NCBI GenBank assembly: GCA_045114745.1
Contig: JBGULD010000060.1
Location: forward strand, 676 to 64,675
Direction of reading: 5' to 3'
Source: Bacilli bacterium
GTDB taxonomy: Bacteria > Bacillota_I > Bacilli_A > RFN20 > CAG-826
DNA length: 64,000 bases
Each line of letters starts with the position of its first letter. Position 1 is the first letter of the stretch. The notes below the pieces were generated by a model, which saw only the letters and a program-made list of their open reading frames with translations, searched no databases and was not told where the DNA came from. A program made the translations under genes and the position numbers. Positions 709 through 54,699 of this stretch are shown here, one piece after another.

Positions 709-1335
709 TTATTTTTTGTTTTTGTATGCCTTATACGAATAAATGCATCCACAGTATTCTTGGAAGTACATTTCGTGTTCTTTGATAATGAGCAAGGAAT
801 GTTCATATCCATCGTTCTTTTTAAAATCAGCATCCAACCACTTTACTGGTTCAAACTCTTTTTCTAATTCATGGCCGATTTTATTAATATCTTGAGCGTT
901 CTTGTATCTAGAAATCGTCATGACAGTGCCAAAATAATCAAAGTTATGTTCTTTTGCGTATTCAAAACCCTGTCTTAATCGCTTTCTAAAACAGATGCGA
1001 CATCTCTCATGCCCTTCTTTATCATCTGCGTGGCTTTCTAAATCTTTGTTGTAGGTTGCGTTATCATAGGGAAATTCAATAAATTCTAACTTCGCACCTA
1101 TCTCTTTGATGTATCTTTTAAATTCTTCTAAGCGGCGATCATGTTCTTCTTTTGGATAAATATTTGAATTGTTGTAGATGACAGTAATATCAAAATAATC
1201 CTTAATAATCTCATAAGGAATGGTAAAGCAAGGACCACAACAAGCATGTAAACAAAGACGCGGTTTTTCGCCGTTTTCCTTAATTTTGTCCAGTTTTTGC
1301 AATAAAATCTTCTGATAATTAATCTTCTTTTCCAT
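709..1335 (-). CDS. queH: Epoxyqueuosine reductase QueH (DUF208 family)
   Basis: LCLHACCGPC motif plus CRICF and CGC cysteines typical of the Fe-S QueH family; directly downstream of queA-tgt. Start trimmed from 1380 to MEKKINYQ (1335) because the extra 15 codons lie inside queA. Confidence 0.8.
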   Translation of the reverse strand: MEKKINYQKILLQKLDKIKENGEKPRLCLHACCGPCFTIPYEIIKDYFDITVIYNNSNIYPKEEHDRRLEEFKRYIKEIGAKLEFIEFPYDNATYNKDLESHADDKEGHERCRICFRKRLRQGFEYAKEHNFDYFGTVMTISRYKNAQDINKIGHELEKEFEPVKWLDADFKKNDGYEHSLLIIKEHEMYFQEYCGCIYSYKAYKNKK

Positions 1336-4396: not shown

Positions 4397-4981
4397 TTAC
4401 ATGTGATATTTTACAACCGTTAAAGCGATTTGTTTATTGACTGCGTATTCATTACCAATACGAGAGTCTTCATATTTAAGACCCTTACTTCTCATATAAG
4501 CCGCTAATTCTTTTGTGGGGAACCATAAGCGAATATCTTTCATATTGAAGTTATAATCGTTCTCAAAATTAGAAATCTTATACGGTAGATAAATCAATTT
4601 CTTACCATTAAAAATGAAATTTTCGGGAGAGAAATCTAATCTGATTTTTTCTCTTCTACCATACCATTCATCAAGTAATAGGAAGCGATAGATATCTTCA
4701 TTAGTAATAACTTCTTTACATAGTAAAGACAACATTGTTTCACCTTCAATAAATTCCGTAACAGAAATCATTTGGTCTTTATCAAACATATAGACCTTAG
4801 GAATATCAATCGCTGTTATCTTTAAACGATGAGAGTTTTTGATAAATTCATTGAACTTATCTTTATTATCATATTTCTTAAGAAAAAAGATCTTGCCATG
4901 TCTTTCCACTTTATAAGAATGTTCTCCTATATGGGCAAGCACTTCAAAATCTTTTCTTTTTATACTAATGATCTCTTTCAT
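4397..4981 (-). CDS. Small protein-kinase-like fold protein (RIO/Kdo/aminoglycoside-phosphotransferase-like), function unknown
   Basis: 194 aa; FFLKKY (possible ATP lysine), hinge-like TEFIEG, catalytic-loop-like LDFSPENFIF (D....N) but no DFG. Weak motif-level call only. Confidence 0.35.
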   Translation of the reverse strand: MKEIISIKRKDFEVLAHIGEHSYKVERHGKIFFLKKYDNKDKFNEFIKNSHRLKITAIDIPKVYMFDKDQMISVTEFIEGETMLSLLCKEVITNEDIYRFLLLDEWYGRREKIRLDFSPENFIFNGKKLIYLPYKISNFENDYNFNMKDIRLWFPTKELAAYMRSKGLKYEDSRIGNEYAVNKQIALTVVKYHM

Positions 4982-45095: not shown

Positions 45096-46346
45096 TTATA
45101 AAATTTCTGGATGGACACAATATGCTAGAACTTCTTCTCTAATAAAACCGAGAGCACCGGCAGAAGCACCGGCTCTGTAGGTAACATAGCTAGGAACCAA
45201 GCGATTAAAGAAGGTTGAATATAAAACGTATCCAAACAATAGATGCTTACTAGCATTAACGAAAGAATGTTTGTTGGCATATGATGCGAATGGAGTAGAT
45301 AAATACATTGGCTTTCCATCAACAACCGTTGCCATTTGATCTGCTAAATCAGCATAATATTCAGCCATTTCTTGAAGTGTTTTTTCTTCGCTATTTGCTG
45401 TTTTGGAATATGAACTTCCACCACTATCAGTAAATATTGATGGGTTTTCAGTGCACCAAGGTGCCAACATATAAATATCATCTGTTTCAGCATGAAGAAG
45501 ATCTTTAATTGCGGCCAGTGAAGTGAGTTCCTTAGACTCAACGTCGGTTGCACTAGGCGTAATACGACGTGGAATTTGGAGAACAATAGTGTCATATTCA
45601 CCATTATTCAAAGCATTTCTAAATCTTTTGCCGCCTGTTGTAGACGCGTTGGCTAGAATTTGGAATTCGTGTGTGGGAATAGATTGGAAGGTATAGGTAG
45701 CAGTATTTCCTAATTCATTCATAATTTCAATATATGAATCCGCAACCCAAACAGGAGCATCAGAATGGTCTGAATCAACAACATTGCAGACATCAGTTGA
45801 ACCAATAATTAAAACATTATGTGAAGTAACTGGTGCTACACAATCATATTTGATTCTTAATTCAGGAGTTGTAAATGAACCAGCTGTAACTTGAATATCA
45901 AAATATGGGGTGTTGATTGCTTGTTCAATGGTTTCGCCATCATCGGCTTGTGTAACTAGACCTTCAACACTATTGAAAGTGTAGGTGAAGTCGGCTGTTC
46001 CAACGGAAGTAAAACCGATAGATTTGAAGCTACCACCAATCATACCTTCAGCAGAGATGGAATCACCAGATTCGGCTGAAAATACTAATTTACTTCCAAC
46101 CCCAAAAACTAAGTTTGCACCACTAACGGTGATGTTTGTGTAATTGAATGTATTTCCGTTAACAATAACACTACCGCTACCTGAAGTTATGTTTGAAGCA
46201 TTAAAAGCAAGTGTTTGTCTATAATCGGTTGGCGTTGTCGCATTAACTAAGCTCTTTTGCTTCGATGTGAATGCAATTGCGGTAGCTGTAACGCTCAAAG
46301 CTAAAGCACCAATACTGAGACACAAAAACAATTTCTTTTGTTTCAT
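45096..46346 (-). CDS. Signal-anchored protein: shared N-terminal module + SGNH-like domain related to domain 2 of the 43377 gene
   Basis: 416 aa; LAFNASNITSGSGSVIVNGNTFNYTNITVSGANLVF..IKYDCV; then HNVLIIGSTD..YDTIVLQIPRRITPSATDVESKELTSLAAIKDLLHAETDDIYMLAPW (compare FDAIIIQVSRRMTPNSTAVNTSEMAAAAAIAPLLKAETENVYVFAPRG). GGAGGA SD. Confidence 0.65.
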   Translation of the reverse strand: MKQKKLFLCLSIGALALSVTATAIAFTSKQKSLVNATTPTDYRQTLAFNASNITSGSGSVIVNGNTFNYTNITVSGANLVFGVGSKLVFSAESGDSISAEGMIGGSFKSIGFTSVGTADFTYTFNSVEGLVTQADDGETIEQAINTPYFDIQVTAGSFTTPELRIKYDCVAPVTSHNVLIIGSTDVCNVVDSDHSDAPVWVADSYIEIMNELGNTATYTFQSIPTHEFQILANASTTGGKRFRNALNNGEYDTIVLQIPRRITPSATDVESKELTSLAAIKDLLHAETDDIYMLAPWCTENPSIFTDSGGSSYSKTANSEEKTLQEMAEYYADLADQMATVVDGKPMYLSTPFASYANKHSFVNASKHLLFGYVLYSTFFNRLVPSYVTYRAGASAGALGFIREEVLAYCVHPEIL

Positions 46347-46379: not shown

Positions 46380-46443
46380 ATTTTAATAAGCGTGTATGAA
46401 TTAAACAATTGACTTTATTGCTAAAAAAGTACAGTATTTTGCT
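46380..46443. promoter_or_regulatory. Back-to-back divergent promoters with conserved TTGCTA direct repeats (cassette 1)
   Basis: Plus strand TTGACT (46409-46414)-N17-CAGTAT (46432-46437)-6 nt-ATG. Minus strand TTGTTT (rc of 46403-46408)-N17-TAAAAT (rc of 46380-46385). TATTGCTA at 46416-46423 and TTTTGCTA at 46437-46444. Aligns gap-free with 52875-52938. Confidence 0.6.
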
Positions 46444-48207
46444 ATGGAGAAGACAAAACCTAATACTTCCTATAGCTGGTTGGGCAATACCAAAAACATC
46501 TATGCTCAAGAAGATATTGTCTATTCACCTTTTTTATATGGCGCAAAAAGAATAGGTATTTTTGAAATTAAACCAAAAGAAGAAATCCGATTAATCTCTT
46601 ATCCATCACAGTACTTCTTCATCATTGTTAATAATGGGACTCTTAGATTTAAACAAAATGATTTAGAAATAGATATCAAAGAAGGAGAGGCATTATTTCG
46701 TGATGCTTCTATAAATTCTGTTTGGGTATCCGCAGATAATGAAAAAGTTGATTGCATGTATTTTTTATTAACAGGAAGCAACATTTCCTTTTTCTATTCT
46801 GAATACGAAAGACGTTCAAATTTGATAATCAAAATTACCGAATCCATTGATAAAATCATTAAACAAATAATAAATGAAGCTAAAGAGGAAACTCTCAATA
46901 AACGAGCATTTTCAATTCTTCTATATTCTTTGTTTTTAGAAATAATTAATCCTTTCGAAGTTCAAACCGTTAATATTACACAAAAAGCTATTGATTATAT
47001 TGAAAGAGAATATCAAAACGATAATTTATCAGTTCAAGATTTAGCGAATTATCTTCACATCTCTTATCACTACTTCTGTCATTTATTCAAACAAGAAAAC
47101 CATATATCACCACAAAAATATATTGCTAAATATCGTTTGAATAGGGCCTTACAATTATTAAAAACAAGCAATCTTGCAATTGAAGATATATTCATCAATG
47201 TCGGATTTAAGAACAAGCAATCTTTTATTAAGGAATGCAAAGAAGAAACCGGTTTGCTCCCATCTGATTATCGAAAGAAGAATAGGCCAATATCCTTAAA
47301 AGCCAAACAAACTAAAAAGATCACATTTACTAATGTCAGTAATATTGGCGATCCATGTATTATTGTGGAAGATAATAAATATTATATGTTCACCACCGCT
47401 AGGAATGGTGGCAATTTAAACTGTTATGTTAGTGATGATATGAAGTATTACAACTTTGTGGGTGAAACAATAGATAAGAATAAATCTTTTGGAAAGATAG
47501 ATTTCTGGGCTCCAGAAGTCATTAAATATAATAATGAATTTTACCTGTTTTATTCCGCAAGAGATAAAGAAGGAACTATTCATATTAATGTCGCCAAATC
47601 ATCAATTATTACTGGGCCATATATTGATTTAAATCAAAATAGACCTTTATTAAATTTAGATAAGGACACAACTGATGGATATCCATTTATCGATAAAGAT
47701 GGAAGAACGTATTTATTCTTCGTTTTAAATTGCACAACTAATGTTATTGAAAACAAACACATTTCCCAAATCTGCGTTGTAGAAATAGAAAAGGATTTCT
47801 CATCCACAAAAGGAGATATCCATATATTGCTCACACCATCGGAAAAATGGGAACTAAAATCTCCAAATAATTATTTTAGAAATGAATCGCCAGGAGTGGT
47901 TTATAAAGACGGAACCTATTTCCTTACCTATTCCGCGAACAACCATCGTGATATCAATTATTGCAGTGGTCTAGCAAAGAGTAAAAACATATTAGGACCA
48001 TATATTAAGAACAAGGAACCAATCGCAAAGAGAATTGAAGGAGTGATATCTTCTCCCGGACACATTTCATATTTTTATGATTTAAAAGGTAACTTTAAAT
48101 GTGCCTATCACATTCTTTCCAACATTAAACAAAACACGTCTGATAGGCGAGCTTGCATATCTTCTGTTTACATAGAAAATAATGAATTGATAATTGATTA
48201 TAAATAA
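46444..48207 (+). CDS. Three-domain regulator: cupin-like sensor + AraC-type HTH + C-terminal GH43 domain
   Basis: 587 aa, no signal peptide; HTH LSVQDLANYLHISYHYFCHLFKQENHISPQKYIAKYRLNRALQLL..GFKNKQSFIKECKEETGLLPSDYR; GH43 motifs NIGDPCIIVEDNKYYMF, FWAPEVIKYNNEFYLFYSA, TTDGYPFIDKDGRTYLFF, RNESPGVVYKDGTYFLTYSA. Confidence 0.85.
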   Translation: MEKTKPNTSYSWLGNTKNIYAQEDIVYSPFLYGAKRIGIFEIKPKEEIRLISYPSQYFFIIVNNGTLRFKQNDLEIDIKEGEALFRDASINSVWVSADNEKVDCMYFLLTGSNISFFYSEYERRSNLIIKITESIDKIIKQIINEAKEETLNKRAFSILLYSLFLEIINPFEVQTVNITQKAIDYIEREYQNDNLSVQDLANYLHISYHYFCHLFKQENHISPQKYIAKYRLNRALQLLKTSNLAIEDIFINVGFKNKQSFIKECKEETGLLPSDYRKKNRPISLKAKQTKKITFTNVSNIGDPCIIVEDNKYYMFTTARNGGNLNCYVSDDMKYYNFVGETIDKNKSFGKIDFWAPEVIKYNNEFYLFYSARDKEGTIHINVAKSSIITGPYIDLNQNRPLLNLDKDTTDGYPFIDKDGRTYLFFVLNCTTNVIENKHISQICVVEIEKDFSSTKGDIHILLTPSEKWELKSPNNYFRNESPGVVYKDGTYFLTYSANNHRDINYCSGLAKSKNILGPYIKNKEPIAKRIEGVISSPGHISYFYDLKGNFKCAYHILSNIKQNTSDRRACISSVYIENNELIIDYK

Positions 48208-48210
48208 TAA

Positions 48211-50538
48211 TTACGTTGATGGTTTTGTTCCTTTATAGAACTCAATCATTGAGAAGGAAACTTTTCTACCACATAAAGCAATACCTAAGTTGTTTGTTTT
48301 TAGACCAGTCAATGTTTGTGTCATGGTGAATACATTTGTGTATCCTTCTGCTTTTCCAATATATTTGTAGGAAATGGTAATTCCGCTACCCTGTTTTGTG
48401 ATAGTTAATGTGACGTCGACATCAGAGAAGTAGGCTTTCATAAATGTCTTCCAATCACTAGATACACTGGTAATGTAATTGCTGCCACTTGTTTTGCTTG
48501 TATAAATTGAGTCAGATGTTGAGGAATTGCCACTGGCATCATAACTATCAATGCACCAATCACTTCTTGATTGGATAAATGCCGCTGCAACTTTGTTATT
48601 AGAGATGCTGTAACTTTCTCCACTATAAGCTGTAGTTGCATCATAGATATATAGTCTTACATGACTGAGGTAAGAATCTGAAGCGGTATCATGGGCGCTT
48701 CCACCTTTTTGATTGAATACTACAGTATAAGAGAAGTTACCAGTAGCGCTATGGACGAGCTTGGTCCAGTTAGTTGGATTCATCGCTGCAGTTCCAGTAG
48801 ATAGGCTTGTTGCATCTTTAACCACCACTGTGCTTGTTAAATCTTCATAATCGGATTCTGCTTCCTCATCATAGATCCAATTTTCACCATCATAATGAGC
48901 AAAGCCATCTTTTGTGATTGCGATTGCTACATTAATGTCTTGTTTTGCTCTAGCAGGAGAAGCAGCCCAACCAGCTGCCGGATTAAATCCAGGACCAAAC
49001 GTCAACAAATCATCGTAATCAAATGTTAATGTTTGGAAAGAAATAAAGACTTCAAATTTAATATTGTAGAGATTTGTGACACTATCGAATGTCGCATTAG
49101 TAATGTAATACTGATCGAAGTTACAACCATTTTTAGAAATATAGAATTGTCTGATGACTTGGATTTGTTCAGTGTGTCCAAAATAGCATTCCCAGTTATC
49201 GACATACCACCAACTGGTGCCATCAACATTCTTCAATGTATCGACATAATAATCCGCAAAAATATAGGCGCCTTCATAAGTCCTTGAACAATAGAAATTT
49301 ATGTAATTCGTGGCGTTTTTGCTGAGTTTATAAGGATGTTTCTTTACATTTTCGGTATAAATCGAATCATTCATAACACCATCGATTTCCACTGTAGATG
49401 CAGGCTCTAAAACAACAAATGTCATCACAAAACTGAGGTCGGTATTGTAACTAACATTAACGGTGCTAACACCTTCGGATTTAGCTAAAACTCTGCCACT
49501 TGAAGATACCTCAATAACATTTTCATCTTGAGCGACATACCCTATTTTGCTCCTATCGAAATTAAGCGGACTAGCCTTTGCCACTATGTCATATGTCTCA
49601 TCCACTAATAAGGTTTTGTTGAGTTCATCTGAATATAATCTTGTTGGTGTGACAAACGTTGATTTAATATCGTCACCTAATAAGTAAGAAATGTTTTTCA
49701 CATATAGGTCAGCGTTTTGACTAAAGATGCCCACTTTGACATTTTGATCACCAAAAGAACTACAAGAGAATCTCTCATAACACATTAAACAATCATCGCC
49801 TTCACCATAAATGCATAACTCATCATCAACTTTACTAATCGCTAATGTGTAATAAGTATCTTCTTGGATAACGTGATTGTAAGGAAGAACGACTTCTTCT
49901 TTTTCAGAACCATAAGAATGATAGAGATATGGGTATCCGGTGTATTTAAAGACCTCTTTAGCGTCGACATATAATAGTTCGCTATTAGAGTCCATTTCTT
50001 CGCCACTAGTTAAATAGAAACCACATTTGCCATCATCAGCTTTGATTTTAAATTTGGCTTCGCAATAGAAATTCTTGGTTTTGAAATTTAAAGCCACTTG
50101 CATACCTTCTTCAGTGAAGTGAATGCCATCTTTATTTATTTTTGAAAAGTCCACTATATCATCACTGTGATAATAATCAATGACATTTGGATGAACGATA
50201 AAGGTTATTTCATCGTAGCAACTTTCGTTGTTAGCATAAGCCGCTCTAATATTGACGGTTTTTATTTCATCAACATCTTTAAAAGTAACGGTGGAGTTTT
50301 CTACGGTAGCAACATTTTCATCGTTACTAGTCCATTTAATGGATTTTCCAATCGGATTAGTGGATACGAAAAGTTCATAGGTGGATTTGCCATAAACATT
50401 GATGTTGTTTTGATCTTCAATGTTGACTTTGACATTTTCTGTTTCTTCATCACCACTAACATCACTAATGTTTTTGTTTGTGGAACAAGCACCTAAGATT
50501 AAACAAATAATTGGGAGTAATAATAATTTGACTTTCAT
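48211..50538 (-). CDS. Large lipoprotein: Big_2-like Ig domains + LamG-like + CBM9-like + C-terminal beta domain
   Basis: Lipobox LGAC; STYELFVSTNPIGKSIKWTSNDENVATVENSTVTF (Big_2-like, a second copy near VAQDENVIEVSSSGRVLAKSEG); VEIDGVMNDSIY..DNWECYF (CBM9-like); C-terminal region resembles the C-terminus of the 51706 gene. Confidence 0.6.
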   Translation of the reverse strand: MKVKLLLLPIICLILGACSTNKNISDVSGDEETENVKVNIEDQNNINVYGKSTYELFVSTNPIGKSIKWTSNDENVATVENSTVTFKDVDEIKTVNIRAAYANNESCYDEITFIVHPNVIDYYHSDDIVDFSKINKDGIHFTEEGMQVALNFKTKNFYCEAKFKIKADDGKCGFYLTSGEEMDSNSELLYVDAKEVFKYTGYPYLYHSYGSEKEEVVLPYNHVIQEDTYYTLAISKVDDELCIYGEGDDCLMCYERFSCSSFGDQNVKVGIFSQNADLYVKNISYLLGDDIKSTFVTPTRLYSDELNKTLLVDETYDIVAKASPLNFDRSKIGYVAQDENVIEVSSSGRVLAKSEGVSTVNVSYNTDLSFVMTFVVLEPASTVEIDGVMNDSIYTENVKKHPYKLSKNATNYINFYCSRTYEGAYIFADYYVDTLKNVDGTSWWYVDNWECYFGHTEQIQVIRQFYISKNGCNFDQYYITNATFDSVTNLYNIKFEVFISFQTLTFDYDDLLTFGPGFNPAAGWAASPARAKQDINVAIAITKDGFAHYDGENWIYDEEAESDYEDLTSTVVVKDATSLSTGTAAMNPTNWTKLVHSATGNFSYTVVFNQKGGSAHDTASDSYLSHVRLYIYDATTAYSGESYSISNNKVAAAFIQSRSDWCIDSYDASGNSSTSDSIYTSKTSGSNYITSVSSDWKTFMKAYFSDVDVTLTITKQGSGITISYKYIGKAEGYTNVFTMTQTLTGLKTNNLGIALCGRKVSFSMIEFYKGTKPST

Positions 50539-51705: not shown

Positions 51706-52836
51706 TTATCTAACTCCCGAAGAAGATGTTGATAATAAATCAAATGTGGTTAGCGCGGACCAGTTTCCAATGCCAATTGCCATACCGATATTTGTTGCAT
51801 CAAATATAATTCCGACATCTCTAGTAATGGTATAAGTGATTGTAATATCGTTTTTGCCTTCAACATTTGTGTCAATAAAGAGAACACAAGTAAATTTTTG
51901 TCCACCGCCTTCAGTATTGACGAGAGACATTGTATAAGTCGCAACTGCATCTTTAGTTGCGTTGTTGAAATTCGTATTATCCCCATAGTTAACAGCATTC
52001 TTCGCACCGGTTGATGCCGATAACCAGCTATCAGCGTTGCCAATGGCTTTTTCGGTATTTGTTCCACCTACCATGGTTGTATGATAGGAATCTGCTCTAA
52101 TTTGATAGAAGGAGTTTTTGCAATATCCGGATGTTGTTTGAATGGCAAAATTTTCATCATATAAATCATCGGCATTATAAATAAAGAAACGAGGTCTTTG
52201 AACACGATCGCTACCCGTATAAATCCAGCGCATTGAAAATTCGAACTCGAATTCATTATGTGGATCTAAGTCATGAACCAAAACATTCCAACTCGCAGCT
52301 TGATTCCAGTTGCTGCCCTTGACTAATGTCGGATAGGAAATTTCGGTACAAGAATAATCGCCAGTAATACTTGTAATAACGGAATTGGTTACTGCTTCAA
52401 GTTTAAAATAGGCGGTGTTGGTGAGATCAAACACTTTACTGCTAGAACTAATCTCAAAAGCTTCAATATGAGAATATCCTTCAAAACCGGTATGTAATTT
52501 GAATGAACCGGTTCCCACAACAGTGAGAGTAGTTAAATCCAATAATTCTTCAACATTTTGAATATATCCACCAGCGGTTAAAGCCATATGGTTATTTGTG
52601 GAAGCACTGGCTCCAACATAATTAAATTTCAAAGCATTGCCTTTCTTTGTGGAAACTACTGAAACATTCTCTCCATAAGAAGCGGGTGCATTATCACCAT
52701 CTAAAACAAATTGATATTCAGTATCCGCTTTAACTGTTCCTAATAATCCTTTTTTGTTATTTGCTAATAGACATGTTACGCCGACGGCTAAAGATATAGT
52801 CATCAAACTAGCAAAAATAATTTTCTTTGTTTTCAT
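51706..52836 (-). CDS. Signal-anchored protein: shared N-terminal module + C-terminal beta domain
   Basis: Start set to MKTKKIIF (52836), 7 nt from GGGGGAG; ..GNALKFNYVGASASTNNHMAL..ITGDYSCT; C-terminus ends ..NIGMAIGIGNWSALTTFDLL. Confidence 0.6.
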   Translation of the reverse strand: MKTKKIIFASLMTISLAVGVTCLLANNKKGLLGTVKADTEYQFVLDGDNAPASYGENVSVVSTKKGNALKFNYVGASASTNNHMALTAGGYIQNVEELLDLTTLTVVGTGSFKLHTGFEGYSHIEAFEISSSSKVFDLTNTAYFKLEAVTNSVITSITGDYSCTEISYPTLVKGSNWNQAASWNVLVHDLDPHNEFEFEFSMRWIYTGSDRVQRPRFFIYNADDLYDENFAIQTTSGYCKNSFYQIRADSYHTTMVGGTNTEKAIGNADSWLSASTGAKNAVNYGDNTNFNNATKDAVATYTMSLVNTEGGGQKFTCVLFIDTNVEGKNDITITYTITRDVGIIFDATNIGMAIGIGNWSALTTFDLLSTSSSGVR

Positions 52837-52874
52837 GAAATTCTCCCCCACGAAAAGTTATTTGATACAAGTTC

Positions 52875-52938
52875 ATTTTAAATAGTTCAAAAACGGCATA
52901 CAATTGACATTATTGCTAAAAAAGGGCAATATTTTGCT
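52875..52938. promoter_or_regulatory. Back-to-back divergent promoters with conserved TTGCTA direct repeats (cassette 2)
   Basis: Plus strand TTGACA (52904-52909)-N17-CAATAT (52927-52932)-6 nt-ATG. Minus strand TTGTAT (rc of 52898-52903)-N17-TAAAAT (rc of 52875-52880). TATTGCTA at 52911-52918 and TTTTGCTA at 52932-52939. Confidence 0.6.
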
Positions 52939-54699
52939 ATGAGTGAAAACAAAATTTACGCATTATTTAGCAACATAAAATATATCTATCACCAAGAAGA
53001 TATTGTCTACTCTCCGTTTTTATATGACATTAGACGAATATTGATTGGGGAAATGAAACCAAATGAGGTTGTCTATTTTGAAAAGAATTTTTCTCAATAT
53101 ATTTTTGTAAATGTGAGAAAAGGCGCTATTGAGATAAAAGAAAAAAATTGCAAAACAATCGTTAGAGCAAATAATGGTTATTTTTATCAGCAATATGGTG
53201 ATACTGAATGGAGATGCATTTCTGAAGAAAATGCTGAATGTTGCTATGTAGCCATAAAGGGGAATAATGTTTCTCTTATTTATAGCGAATATAGAAAAAA
53301 AGAAAATGGAGTTATGGAAGTAAATTCCAGACTAGCCGAAACTCTAGAAAATATTTTATTAGAAACCAAACAAACACAAGTTAATAAACAACAAATATCT
53401 GTCTATATTTATTCTCTTCTATTACAGCTTGTGAAAACCGAAGGTTCAAAAAAAGAAAGAATCACCGCAAAGTCAATTGAATATATCGAAAAGAATTATC
53501 AAAACGACGAACTATCAATTGAAGATTTAGCAAGGAATTTAAATATCTCTTATTACTACTTCTGCCACTTATTTAAGCAAGAAAATCTCATATCACCACA
53601 AAAATACCTTTTGAAATATCGCTTAAACAAAGCATTAGAACTATTAAAAGAAAGTGATTTATCAATTGAAGATGTTTCAATTAATGCGGGTTTTAAAAAC
53701 AAAAAAGCTTTAGTGAAAGCGTGTAAGGAAGAGACGGGGTTATTGCCTTTTAAATATCGTAAAGTCAATAAAACAACACCGTTAAAAGCAAAACAAACCA
53801 AGAAGATATTATTCACAAATGTCAGCAATATAGGCGATCCATTTATTATTGTTGAAAATAAGAAATACTATATGTTCACCACGACTAGGAATGGTGCCAA
53901 CTTCAATTGCTATGTCAGTGAAGATATGAAATATTATGATTTTGTTGGCGAAGTACTAAATAAGAATAAAACTTTTGGAAAAACAGATTTCTGGGCCCCA
54001 GAAGTTATTAAATATAACGGGGAATTCTATTTGTTCTATTCCGCAAGAACTGAAAGTGGCATCTTCCACATCAATGTCGCCAAATCAAAAACTTTAGAAG
54101 AACCATTTGAGGATTGGTGTACTGATAGGCTACTACTCAATCTTGATAAGTCCACGATTGATGCACATCCTTTTATAGATGATGACGGTAGAATTTATCT
54201 ATTCTTTTCCATGGATTGTTCAACAAACATCATAGATGGAAAACATGTCTCTGAAATATATGTTGTTGAATTAAACAAAGAACTAAATGGGACAATTGGT
54301 GAAATTATAAAAGTGTCATCGCCGACGGAAGAATGGGAAAAACTATCATCTAATGACTACTACTGGAATGAAGGCCCAAGCATTGTTCATCTAAATGGAA
54401 TATATTATTTGACTTATTCAGCGAATTATTTCGGTGATAGAAATTATTGTGTTGGTGTGGCCACAAGCAAATCAGTCCTTGGACCATATGAAAAGAAAAA
54501 AGATGGACCGATACTTAAAAAGATTAATAATGTCATTTCAGGACCTGGTCATTGTTCATTTTTCTATGACAATAAGAATAATTTCAAATGCGTATATCAC
54601 ATTCATTCCAATCAAGTACAAAATAGCGCGGATCGTCGTGCATGTATATCGTCCGCATTTATTGATTCAAATAATGAATTAGTAATAGATTATAAATAA
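52939..54699 (+). CDS. Three-domain regulator: cupin-like sensor + AraC-type HTH + C-terminal GH43 domain (paralog of the 46444 gene)
   Basis: 586 aa; LSIEDLARNLNISYYYFCHLFKQENLISPQKYLLKYRLNKALELL; identical junction LKAKQTKKI.FTNVSNIGDP; GH43 motifs IGDPFIIVENKKYYMF, FWAPEVIKYNGEFYLFYSA, TIDAHPFIDDDGRIYLFF, WNEGPSIVHLNGIYYLTYSA. Confidence 0.85.
   Translation: MSENKIYALFSNIKYIYHQEDIVYSPFLYDIRRILIGEMKPNEVVYFEKNFSQYIFVNVRKGAIEIKEKNCKTIVRANNGYFYQQYGDTEWRCISEENAECCYVAIKGNNVSLIYSEYRKKENGVMEVNSRLAETLENILLETKQTQVNKQQISVYIYSLLLQLVKTEGSKKERITAKSIEYIEKNYQNDELSIEDLARNLNISYYYFCHLFKQENLISPQKYLLKYRLNKALELLKESDLSIEDVSINAGFKNKKALVKACKEETGLLPFKYRKVNKTTPLKAKQTKKILFTNVSNIGDPFIIVENKKYYMFTTTRNGANFNCYVSEDMKYYDFVGEVLNKNKTFGKTDFWAPEVIKYNGEFYLFYSARTESGIFHINVAKSKTLEEPFEDWCTDRLLLNLDKSTIDAHPFIDDDGRIYLFFSMDCSTNIIDGKHVSEIYVVELNKELNGTIGEIIKVSSPTEEWEKLSSNDYYWNEGPSIVHLNGIYYLTYSANYFGDRNYCVGVATSKSVLGPYEKKKDGPILKKINNVISGPGHCSFFYDNKNNFKCVYHIHSNQVQNSADRRACISSAFIDSNNELVIDYK

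Follow-up and report, generated by a model that had tools for sequence, protein, structure and literature searches.

A conserved block at the start of cupin-AraC-GH43 fusion genes combines a predicted leaderless promoter with a candidate 21-bp-phased AraC-type operator

We analyzed a stretch of 64,000 nucleotides (the window) from the Bacilli bacterium assembly GCA_045114745.1 (contig JBGULD010000060.1, positions 676 to 64,675). The subject is a short block found twice in the window, each time directly upstream of a gene for a cupin-AraC-GH43 fusion protein (regulators A and B). The two copies, A and B, lie 6.5 kb apart in the same genome. Each is placed within an intergenic region of ~97 bp, between a secreted-protein operon on the minus strand and the fusion gene on the plus strand. 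An earlier reading of the DNA, made from the letters alone (the sequence-only reading), had described a gapless 64-bp alignment of 46380-46443 with 52875-52938. This alignment was recovered, with 46 of the 64 bases identical. Its left 25 bp matched at 11 positions, and the right 42 bp (46403-46444 vs 52898-52939) at 37. The features of the two loci are the following.

46403..46446, plus strand: conserved block copy A (AAACAATTGACTTTATTGCTAAAAAAGTACAGTATTTTGCTATG), from the ungapped family alignment
46409..46414, plus strand: predicted -35 of the regulator-A promoter, TTGACT, from the family alignment
46432..46437, plus strand: predicted -10 of the regulator-A promoter, CAGTAT, after a 17-nt spacer and 6 nt before the ATG, in the register with invariant A2 and T6
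46416..46423, plus strand: distal half-site of copy A (TATTGCTA), within the -35/-10 spacer, from the repeat search; wTTTGCGA or wTTTGCTA in orthologues
46437..46444, plus strand: proximal half-site of copy A (TTTTGCTA), starting at the last -10 base, covering the discriminator and ending on the A of the ATG; its distance to the distal site is 21 bp
46444..48207, plus strand: regulator A, a cupin-AraC(HTH_18)-GH43 fusion of 587 amino acids, from Pfam, structure models and Foldseek; predicted start at the A of the ATG
46403..46408, minus strand: predicted -35 of divergent promoter A, TTGTTT, abutting the plus-strand -35; [AT]A[AT]CAA is conserved, with 0.90 identity
46380..46385, minus strand: predicted -10 of divergent promoter A, TAAAAT, after a 17-nt spacer; ATTTTA or ATTGTA in 9 of 12 family members
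45096..46346, minus strand: divergent partner gene A, a signal-anchored protein of 416 amino acids, with a GGAGG Shine-Dalgarno sequence and no Pfam match
52898..52941, plus strand: conserved block copy B (ATACAATTGACATTATTGCTAAAAAAGGGCAATATTTTGCTATG), matching copy A at 37/42 positions of 46403-46444
52904..52909, plus strand: predicted -35 of the regulator-B promoter, TTGACA, from the family alignment and the consensus scan
52927..52932, plus strand: predicted -10 of the regulator-B promoter, CAATAT, after a 17-nt spacer and 6 nt before the ATG, from the family alignment
52911..52918, plus strand: distal half-site of copy B (TATTGCTA), from the repeat search
52932..52939, plus strand: proximal half-site of copy B (TTTTGCTA), from the repeat search
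52939..54699, plus strand: regulator B, a cupin-AraC-GH43 fusion of 586 amino acids, 55% identical to regulator A
52898..52903, minus strand: predicted -35 of divergent promoter B, TTGTAT, from the family alignment
52875..52880, minus strand: predicted -10 of divergent promoter B, TAAAAT, from the family alignment
51706..52836, minus strand: divergent partner gene B, a signal-anchored protein of 376 amino acids from the ATG at 52836, with a GGGGGAG Shine-Dalgarno sequence

The two regulators are paralogues. In both, Pfam recognized an AraC-type DNA-binding domain at residues ~180-280 (HTH_18 with E = 1.8e-19 and 2.1e-17, HTH_AraC with E = 7.8e-11 and 4.4e-10) and a GH43 domain at ~300-585. The AlphaFold model of the whole protein had a mean predicted local distance difference test score (pLDDT) of 84.6, and its Foldseek matches were GH43 structures, for example 4qqs. 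A model of residues 1-288 (pLDDT 83) matched the full-length AraC-family structures ToxT, Rns and CsvR at E ~1e-11, and AraC-type DNA-binding domains were matched with template modeling (TM) scores of 0.8-0.9 normalized to the target. The N-terminal part of this model consisted of a beta-barrel (residues 17-111) followed by helices (114-168), with a pLDDT of ~85-94. This cupin part matched the lactose sensor BgaR (6nwh) at TM 0.78, normalized to the target, and the arabinose-binding/dimerization domain of AraC (2arc/1xja) at TM ~0.6 (0.61 for 2arc). Because of the matches to full-length AraC-family structures and to the BgaR and AraC sensor domains, the first 285 residues already make up, as modeled, a complete AraC-type regulator, to which the GH43 propeller has been added. 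The sequence-only reading had named the proteins AraC-family fusion regulators, and the full AraC architecture, including a cupin sensor/dimerization domain, was indeed present.

The fusion family is small. It formed 11 clusters at 90% identity in 5.8 billion proteins, and at 50% identity a set of 1.84 billion representative proteins yielded only three. In genome and metagenome contig collections we found one further fusion locus (L039 = G002); the remaining matches were plain GH43 genes. One genome of the same genus, which has an orthologue, is labeled as an uncultured rumen Erysipelotrichaceae metagenome-assembled genome. Across the family, recognition helix 3 (ISYHYFCHLFKQEN) was 85% identical, vs 58% for the proteins overall. 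The nearest non-fused relative, P0112 (L202 404-1237), is a stand-alone cupin-AraC protein of 277 amino acids without GH43, and it keeps an operator-like upstream sequence. A stand-alone GH43 protein, 47% identical to the C-terminal part of the fusion, was found in another Erysipelotrichaceae metagenome-assembled genome (L040 3001-3912). The fusion family probably arose by the addition of a GH43 domain to the AraC lineage of P0112.

The GH43 catalytic residues were assigned from the known motif in the family alignment, not by structural superposition. At the general-acid position (the E of N-E-[SG]-P), Glu was found only in regulators A and B and in P0009, Asp in P0002, P0010 and P0011, and Gln in P0003-P0008. 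In P0007, a Glu replaces the Asp of the catalytic base (GEPF). About half of the fusion family is probably not hydrolytic, which suggests that the GH43 domain acts as a ligand sensor.

The divergent arrangement was present at every locus of ten further close members of the family. The partner genes A and B had no BLAST similarity to each other, and homologues of partner A occupied the same divergent position at eight other loci. In the family as a whole, the partner proteins belonged to two BLAST-unrelated types, with 27-78% identity within a type. For partner gene B, the start of the longest open reading frame (GTG at 52851) is probably wrong, as the ATG at 52836 has a well-placed GGGGGAG and the orthologues have 376 amino acids. 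The called partner genes of L194 and L195 had similarly over-extended starts. Regulator gene A (stop at 48207) converges on the minus-strand operon of copy B, and only 3 nt separate it from the final gene there (48211-50538).

Copies A and B are one evolutionary event, not independent occurrences. To follow the block beyond them, we aligned the upstream regions of 12 close family members (~10 of them independent), 10 of which come in addition to A and B, with 41-69% amino acid identity. The alignment was anchored at the start codon and ungapped. The family consensus was tAaACAA, abutted by TTGACt-tatTTGCkAAAAAAGta-CAaTAT-TTTGCT-ATG. Over a 43-bp block (-41..+2, corresponding to 46403-46445), the mean pairwise identity was 0.86. 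Within it, the AAACAA hexamer reached 0.90, the plus-strand spacer 0.80 and the discriminator TTTGCT 1.00, being invariant in 12/12 sequences. Outside of it, identity was 0.39 in the minus-strand spacer, 0.40 in the region further upstream, 0.43 in the coding bases +4..+30 and 0.48 at the third codon positions of the whole gene. Since these neutral positions, flanks and third codon positions alike, are saturated, the comparison indicates that the block is under purifying selection and that the plus promoter is constrained beyond its hexamers.

The same picture was seen between the two copies in the window. The plus-strand spacer was identical at 15/17 positions and the minus-strand spacer at 4/17, as the sequence-only reading had stated, and the family-wide means reproduce this difference. 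A sliding comparison of both paralogous loci, 42 bp at a time, gave 0.90 identity for the block, on a par with the best-conserved coding stretches; the mean was 0.63. Between copy B and its orthologue L193 the block was identical, with two changes further upstream. As a control, we considered the ordinary AraC genes of the window. They had few orthologues, and those at 41-45% amino acid identity were Shine-Dalgarno-led and had upstream regions that could not be aligned.

A coding extension upstream of the start codon was considered and rejected. The 13 open codons contain no ATG, GTG or TTG, and P0010 and P0011 carry TTTTGCTAT-ATG, so that the block is displaced by 2 nt relative to the reading frame while the DNA is kept. 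For these two reasons the block is read as non-coding. In P0011 (L195), the most divergent of the close members, the proximal half of the block is present once more in inverted orientation (CAAAAGTGAAATATTTTGCTT), at 913-933 (-) vs 1005-1025 (+), with 17/21 bases identical and 17.6 bits. It lies ~70 bp upstream, inside the predicted 5' untranslated region of the divergent gene, and the other loci had no such copy. This half-copy could be an auxiliary operator or a local duplication.

The back-to-back promoter pair proposed by the sequence-only reading held across the family, and the junction AAACAA|TTGACT was kept in all 12 close members. On the plus strand, the -35 was TTGAC[TA] in 10/12 members and TTGAT[TA] in the other 2/12; TTGACT and TTGACA in copies A and B match the consensus at 5-6 of 6 positions. 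The -10, after 17 nt, was [CT]A[AGT][TA][AT]T, and this was the sole register in which A2 and T6 were invariant across the family. An alternative register, TACAAT after a 15-nt spacer, was rejected in favor of CAnTAT at 17 nt, its position 2 being A, G or T in the family. On the minus strand, the -35 TTGTTT/TTGTAT was followed in most members by a TAAAAT or TACAAT -10 at ~17 nt, with a spacer that drifts. The plus promoter has thus conserved hexamers, spacer and discriminator, and the minus promoter conserved hexamers only. The partner operons have a normal leader with a Shine-Dalgarno sequence, GGAGG in A and GGGGGAG in B.

For the regulator genes, no Shine-Dalgarno sequence precedes the ATG, and the plus-strand -10 ends 6 nt upstream of this codon. 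Because of this spacing, transcription probably starts at the A of the ATG and gives a leaderless mRNA, which would place the proximal repeat on the transcription start site. The sequence-only reading had stopped short of this consequence. The start codon was ATG in 10/12 members and GTG in 2/12, and in the two members with TTTTGCTAT the ATG comes two bases later. Five other unit-leading genes in the window had a good -10 ending 6-8 nt before an ATG without Shine-Dalgarno, at 4981(-), 19247(+), 22758(+), 41968(-) and 63819(-). Three of these five are regulator genes, two AraC-type and one LacI-type (19247, 41968, 63819). Internal operon genes use GGAGG. Genome-wide, -10-like hexamers were enriched at starts of -15 to -12 from the ATG, next to a normal Shine-Dalgarno peak at -14 to -11, and a leaderless-like layout was found for ~100 of 713 long open reading frames, vs 32 in a displaced control. 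In this layout, the leaderless geometry appears as a habit of the genome and is not special to the regulator gene. Leaderless cases are also on record for Mesoplasma florum, where the mapped transcription starts fall 6-7 nt past the -10 (PMC7745072).

The discriminators of the five other leaderless-type genes (actaat, aatctca, atagttgt, gttaac and atgattgt) were unrelated to TTTGCT and their spacers were unrelated as well. The invariant TTTGCT and the conserved spacer are hence not general needs of a leaderless promoter. In the spacer and discriminator, ~19 near-invariant positions are unaccounted for by the consensus elements of RNA polymerase.

These positions contain the direct repeat noticed by the sequence-only reading. 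Each copy has two T[AT]TTGCTA elements at a distance of 21 bp, and the pair T[AT]TTGCTA-N13-T[AT]TTGCTA was located by sequence search at 46416-46444 and 52911-52939. The octamer did not hold as the conserved unit, because most orthologues have wTTTGCGA at the distal site; the conserved half-site core is TTTG[CT], 21 bp center-to-center. When the family profile was matched to itself, offset 21 was the best among offsets 5-31, with 13/21 consensus positions matching and a score of 13.0 over 23 compared columns (z = 2.6), and the half-site is roughly AAAnAnTnnAnTnnTTTGCnA. A reading as an inverted repeat, TATTGC-N9-GCAATA, was discarded, as it is perfect only in copy B and not conserved in the family.

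Two far more distant homologues, found by exhaustive profile search, also have a 21-bp direct repeat on or just upstream of the start codon, in agreement with the AraC-type phasing that had been proposed. P0022 is a fusion protein with 38% identity to regulator A, and its divergent partner is of the SGNH type. In its upstream region (...ctattgcAAATTTTGTTAaattagtgttAAATTTTGTTAgagATG), the exact 11-mer AAATTTTGTTA occurs as a pair at offset 21; the pair stops 3 nt short of the ATG, and the promoter hexamers differ from those of the block. Exact runs of at least 11 at offset 21 occur 8 times per Mb in the genome of the window, and the chance of one within 60 nt of the P0022 start is ~5e-4. P0112 shares 31% identity with the N-terminal part of regulator B and has a co-directional gene upstream. 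Its upstream sequence (gcgcTTATTGCTTAAAAAGGGTAAGATATTGTTATG) agrees with the right part of copy B at 27/32 positions, with TATTGCT and TATTGTT 21 bp apart and a TAAGAT -10 standing 6 nt before the ATG. The left 12 bp with the two -35 hexamers are not kept (5/12). What persists is a pair of candidate half-sites with a TTTG[CT] core, phased by 21 bp, on the start of the regulator's own gene. The element travels with the AraC module, and not with GH43 or the divergent promoter. These two relatives carry the main weight for the predicted operator.

The block was not present upstream of the more distant stand-alone AraC relatives L206-L210 (~30% identity). L206-L209 (G339, G132, G096, G026) form another stand-alone AraC subfamily (MKTTKRTV..., ~30% identical to P0112), which has a strongly conserved upstream sequence of its own (aaaATTGCAAActtaaacacaATTACAGGTAATAaag), unrelated to the block.

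Taken with slightly better than even confidence, the block is a composite of a leaderless promoter and an overlapping AraC-type operator with two half-sites, bound by a dimer of the gene's own product. Each copy would form the core of a compact divergent control region of ~97 bp. Here the minus-strand promoter would drive the operon for secreted or signal-anchored proteins, and the abutting plus-strand promoter the cupin-AraC-GH43 gene. The extra constraint on the plus promoter would reflect a protein-binding site of two direct-repeat half-sites, one in the spacer and the other from the -10 to +1. An AraC-type dimer would occupy both half-sites. It is most probably the product of the adjacent gene, given its AraC/BgaR-like cupin dimerization domain and its nearly invariant DNA-recognition helices. 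As the dimer would cover -41 to +2 of its own promoter, RNA polymerase would be excluded and the gene negatively autoregulated. The same dimer would sit at about -30 to -71 of the divergent promoter, for which the predicted start is ~46373, and may turn on the partner operon in response to a ligand that the cupin domain, the GH43 domain or both detect. AraC/XylS activators work from about -30 to -71. Cross-binding between the paralogues, also raised by the sequence-only reading, is plausible because the two sites match at 37/42 positions and the predicted recognition helices are nearly identical.

Several results weigh against this composite of promoter and operator. The -10 hexamers CAGTAT and CAATAT are weak (3/6 of the consensus). 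A simple consensus promoter scan called nothing in copy A, and in copy B it picked the neighboring register TTGACA-18-AATATT. The GTG start of two members is less usual for leaderless mRNAs. The self-similarity at offset 21 within the close family is no more than suggestive, as its z is stated before correction for 27 offsets. P0112 has no divergent partner, so the activation half cannot be general. The relaxed pair TTGCKA-N15-TTGCTR occurred at chance frequency in the own genome and 40 relatives (41 genomes), and no further credible site came up in the whole assembly and the related loci with position weight matrices for the full block, for each half or for a merged half-site. As no extra sites define a regulon, the assignment of the binder follows entirely from the co-inheritance of the site with the AraC module.

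The genome search proposed in the sequence-only reading gave a divided answer. The exact pair was confined to the two known sites: there was no third exact match in the 64-kb window, where 0.4 are expected for up to two mismatches, and just two occurrences in the whole assembly (993 kb, 36% G + C, 77% complete). The relaxed hexamer pair was found at random frequency, an outcome which that reading had itself named as counting against it, with three matches in the own genome vs four for a reversed-pattern control. The short repeat alone carries little information, given this chance frequency; for the predicted operator, the evidence beyond chance comes from conservation in other genomes. A half-site of ~9-10 bits is too weak for the prediction of a genome-wide regulon. 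In G346, the genome of P0022, a single site was found. Even so, the site may serve a target, as the divergent operon has it in common with the regulator gene.

An operator role of the block for some other trans-acting factor, for instance a global carbon regulator or a further AraC paralogue, is unlikely. The genome encodes several further AraC-family and LacI-family proteins, and the adjacent gene product is taken as the binder from sequence, not from experiment. A global regulator would have many sites; here, in the three genomes scanned, each fusion or AraC-module gene had one site, and none was found elsewhere. Over a range of 31-69% identity, and in varied genomes and gene neighborhoods, it accompanies the AraC module, and no other regulator gene is conserved at these loci. 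By eye, the block has no likeness to the consensus sequences of cre, CodY, Rex and sigma-54 (-24/-12).

Quite unlikely is an explanation by the promoter only, in which RNA polymerase itself needs the block, as a special spacer and discriminator forcing the start on the A of the ATG, without a dedicated regulator. The block does coincide with the promoter elements (-35, spacer, -10 and discriminator), a leaderless gene has to be started precisely, the spacer's A-tract could act through DNA shape, and the genome scans gave no further copies of the site. However, the other leaderless-type genes of the window manage with unrelated spacers and discriminators, the abutting minus promoter keeps its hexamers alone, and the ordinary AraC gene at 41-45% amino acid identity has no upstream conservation. 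The distant relatives separate the repeat from the promoter: P0112 retains the spacer and discriminator sequence but not the -35, and P0022 has different promoter hexamers yet the exact 11-mer repeat at 21 bp.

We regard it as very unlikely that the block acts as RNA, being transcribed from a promoter further upstream and serving as a non-Shine-Dalgarno translation enhancer or a structured leader. An ATG without Shine-Dalgarno needs some non-canonical initiation anyway. Against this, the remainder of the ~97-bp intergenic region is the divergent promoter and unconserved, an Rfam search gave no match, and the predicted folds were no better than those of shuffled sequence (z = 0.9 and -1.1). TTGAC[TA]-17-CAnTAT with the ATG at +1 is the geometry of a promoter, and the same leaderless geometry is seen genome-wide. 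A functionless carry-over of the duplication, against which the sequence-only reading had argued, or a recent gene conversion between the two cassettes so close in one genome, is contradicted already: the proteins have diverged to 55% identity, the third codon positions (0.48) and flanks (~0.40) are at background, the block is kept in orthologues from at least nine other assemblies, and the purifying selection on it excludes such an origin of the similarity.

Compared with known systems, the predicted autoregulatory arrangement resembles araC-araBAD of E. coli, for which the details used here are established knowledge. Both have an AraC-type regulator with a cupin sensor/dimerization domain and a two-HTH (helix-turn-helix) DNA-binding domain, a regulator gene divergent from its target operon, and 21-bp-phased direct half-sites, with one site overlapping the regulator's own promoter, so that autorepression is possible. 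Seen from the divergent promoter, the site lies at about -30 to -71, much as araI does at pBAD. Direct repeats of 21 bp are a known site type of AraC (araI1-I2) and XylS. Unlike in E. coli, a single compact site within ~97 bp would serve both roles, with no distant O2-type site and no CRP site. The predicted leaderless mRNA, the additional C-terminal GH43 domain and a half-site unrelated to araI are further differences, and the system described here is known from sequence alone.

BgaR-PbgaL of the Firmicute Clostridium perfringens also has a sugar-responsive AraC regulator, and BgaR is the closest structural match of the N-terminal sensor domain (6nwh). The BgaR gene reportedly adjoins the gene it controls. 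BgaR differs in having no glycosidase domain and is only 16-18% identical in sequence; the comparison was made by protein, not by operator. The predicted combination of a leaderless regulator mRNA with the regulator's own operator over the promoter, back-to-back with a target promoter, is shared with lambda cI (PRM) and tetR of Tn1721, which are the classical leaderless autoregulated regulator genes. The Mesoplasma florum paper (PMC7745072) cites a review by Moll et al. (2002). These two regulators belong to other protein families and have palindromic operators, and here leaderless starts are a predicted genome-wide habit.

In Bacteroides, comparative genomics upstream of polysaccharide-utilization genes predicted direct repeats with a mean distance of 21 bp for AraC-type hybrid two-component systems, and closely related paralogues of these were predicted to share sites (PMC3878776). 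The hybrid systems are membrane sensor kinases with periplasmic sensing, and their sites lie upstream of target operons, not on their own start.

A wider version of the proposed composite site is possible, and we offer it tentatively. The ~43-bp site would be the two-way switch of an enzyme-fused sugar sensor, whose dimer, bound to the two half-sites, shuts its own leaderless promoter and activates the divergent surface-glycan operon from -30 to -71. GH43, which has lost its catalytic acid in half of the family, would add a further sensor for ligands, and the paralogues would share an operator and thereby form cross-regulated cassettes.

The element and the protein family are undescribed; divergent control by an autoregulated AraC-type protein is a textbook principle. 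The value of the finding is in annotation and testability, and not in a new concept. The family offers a clear comparative example of predicted leaderless regulator genes in a Firmicute lineage that uses Shine-Dalgarno sequences, and a defined 43-bp candidate operator-promoter makes it testable in vitro. If the proposed reading is true, the block would be the cis-element for rare, uncharacterized AraC-GH43 regulators of uncultured rumen Bacillota with small genomes, and would constitute a compact, possibly sugar-responsive, bidirectional expression module.

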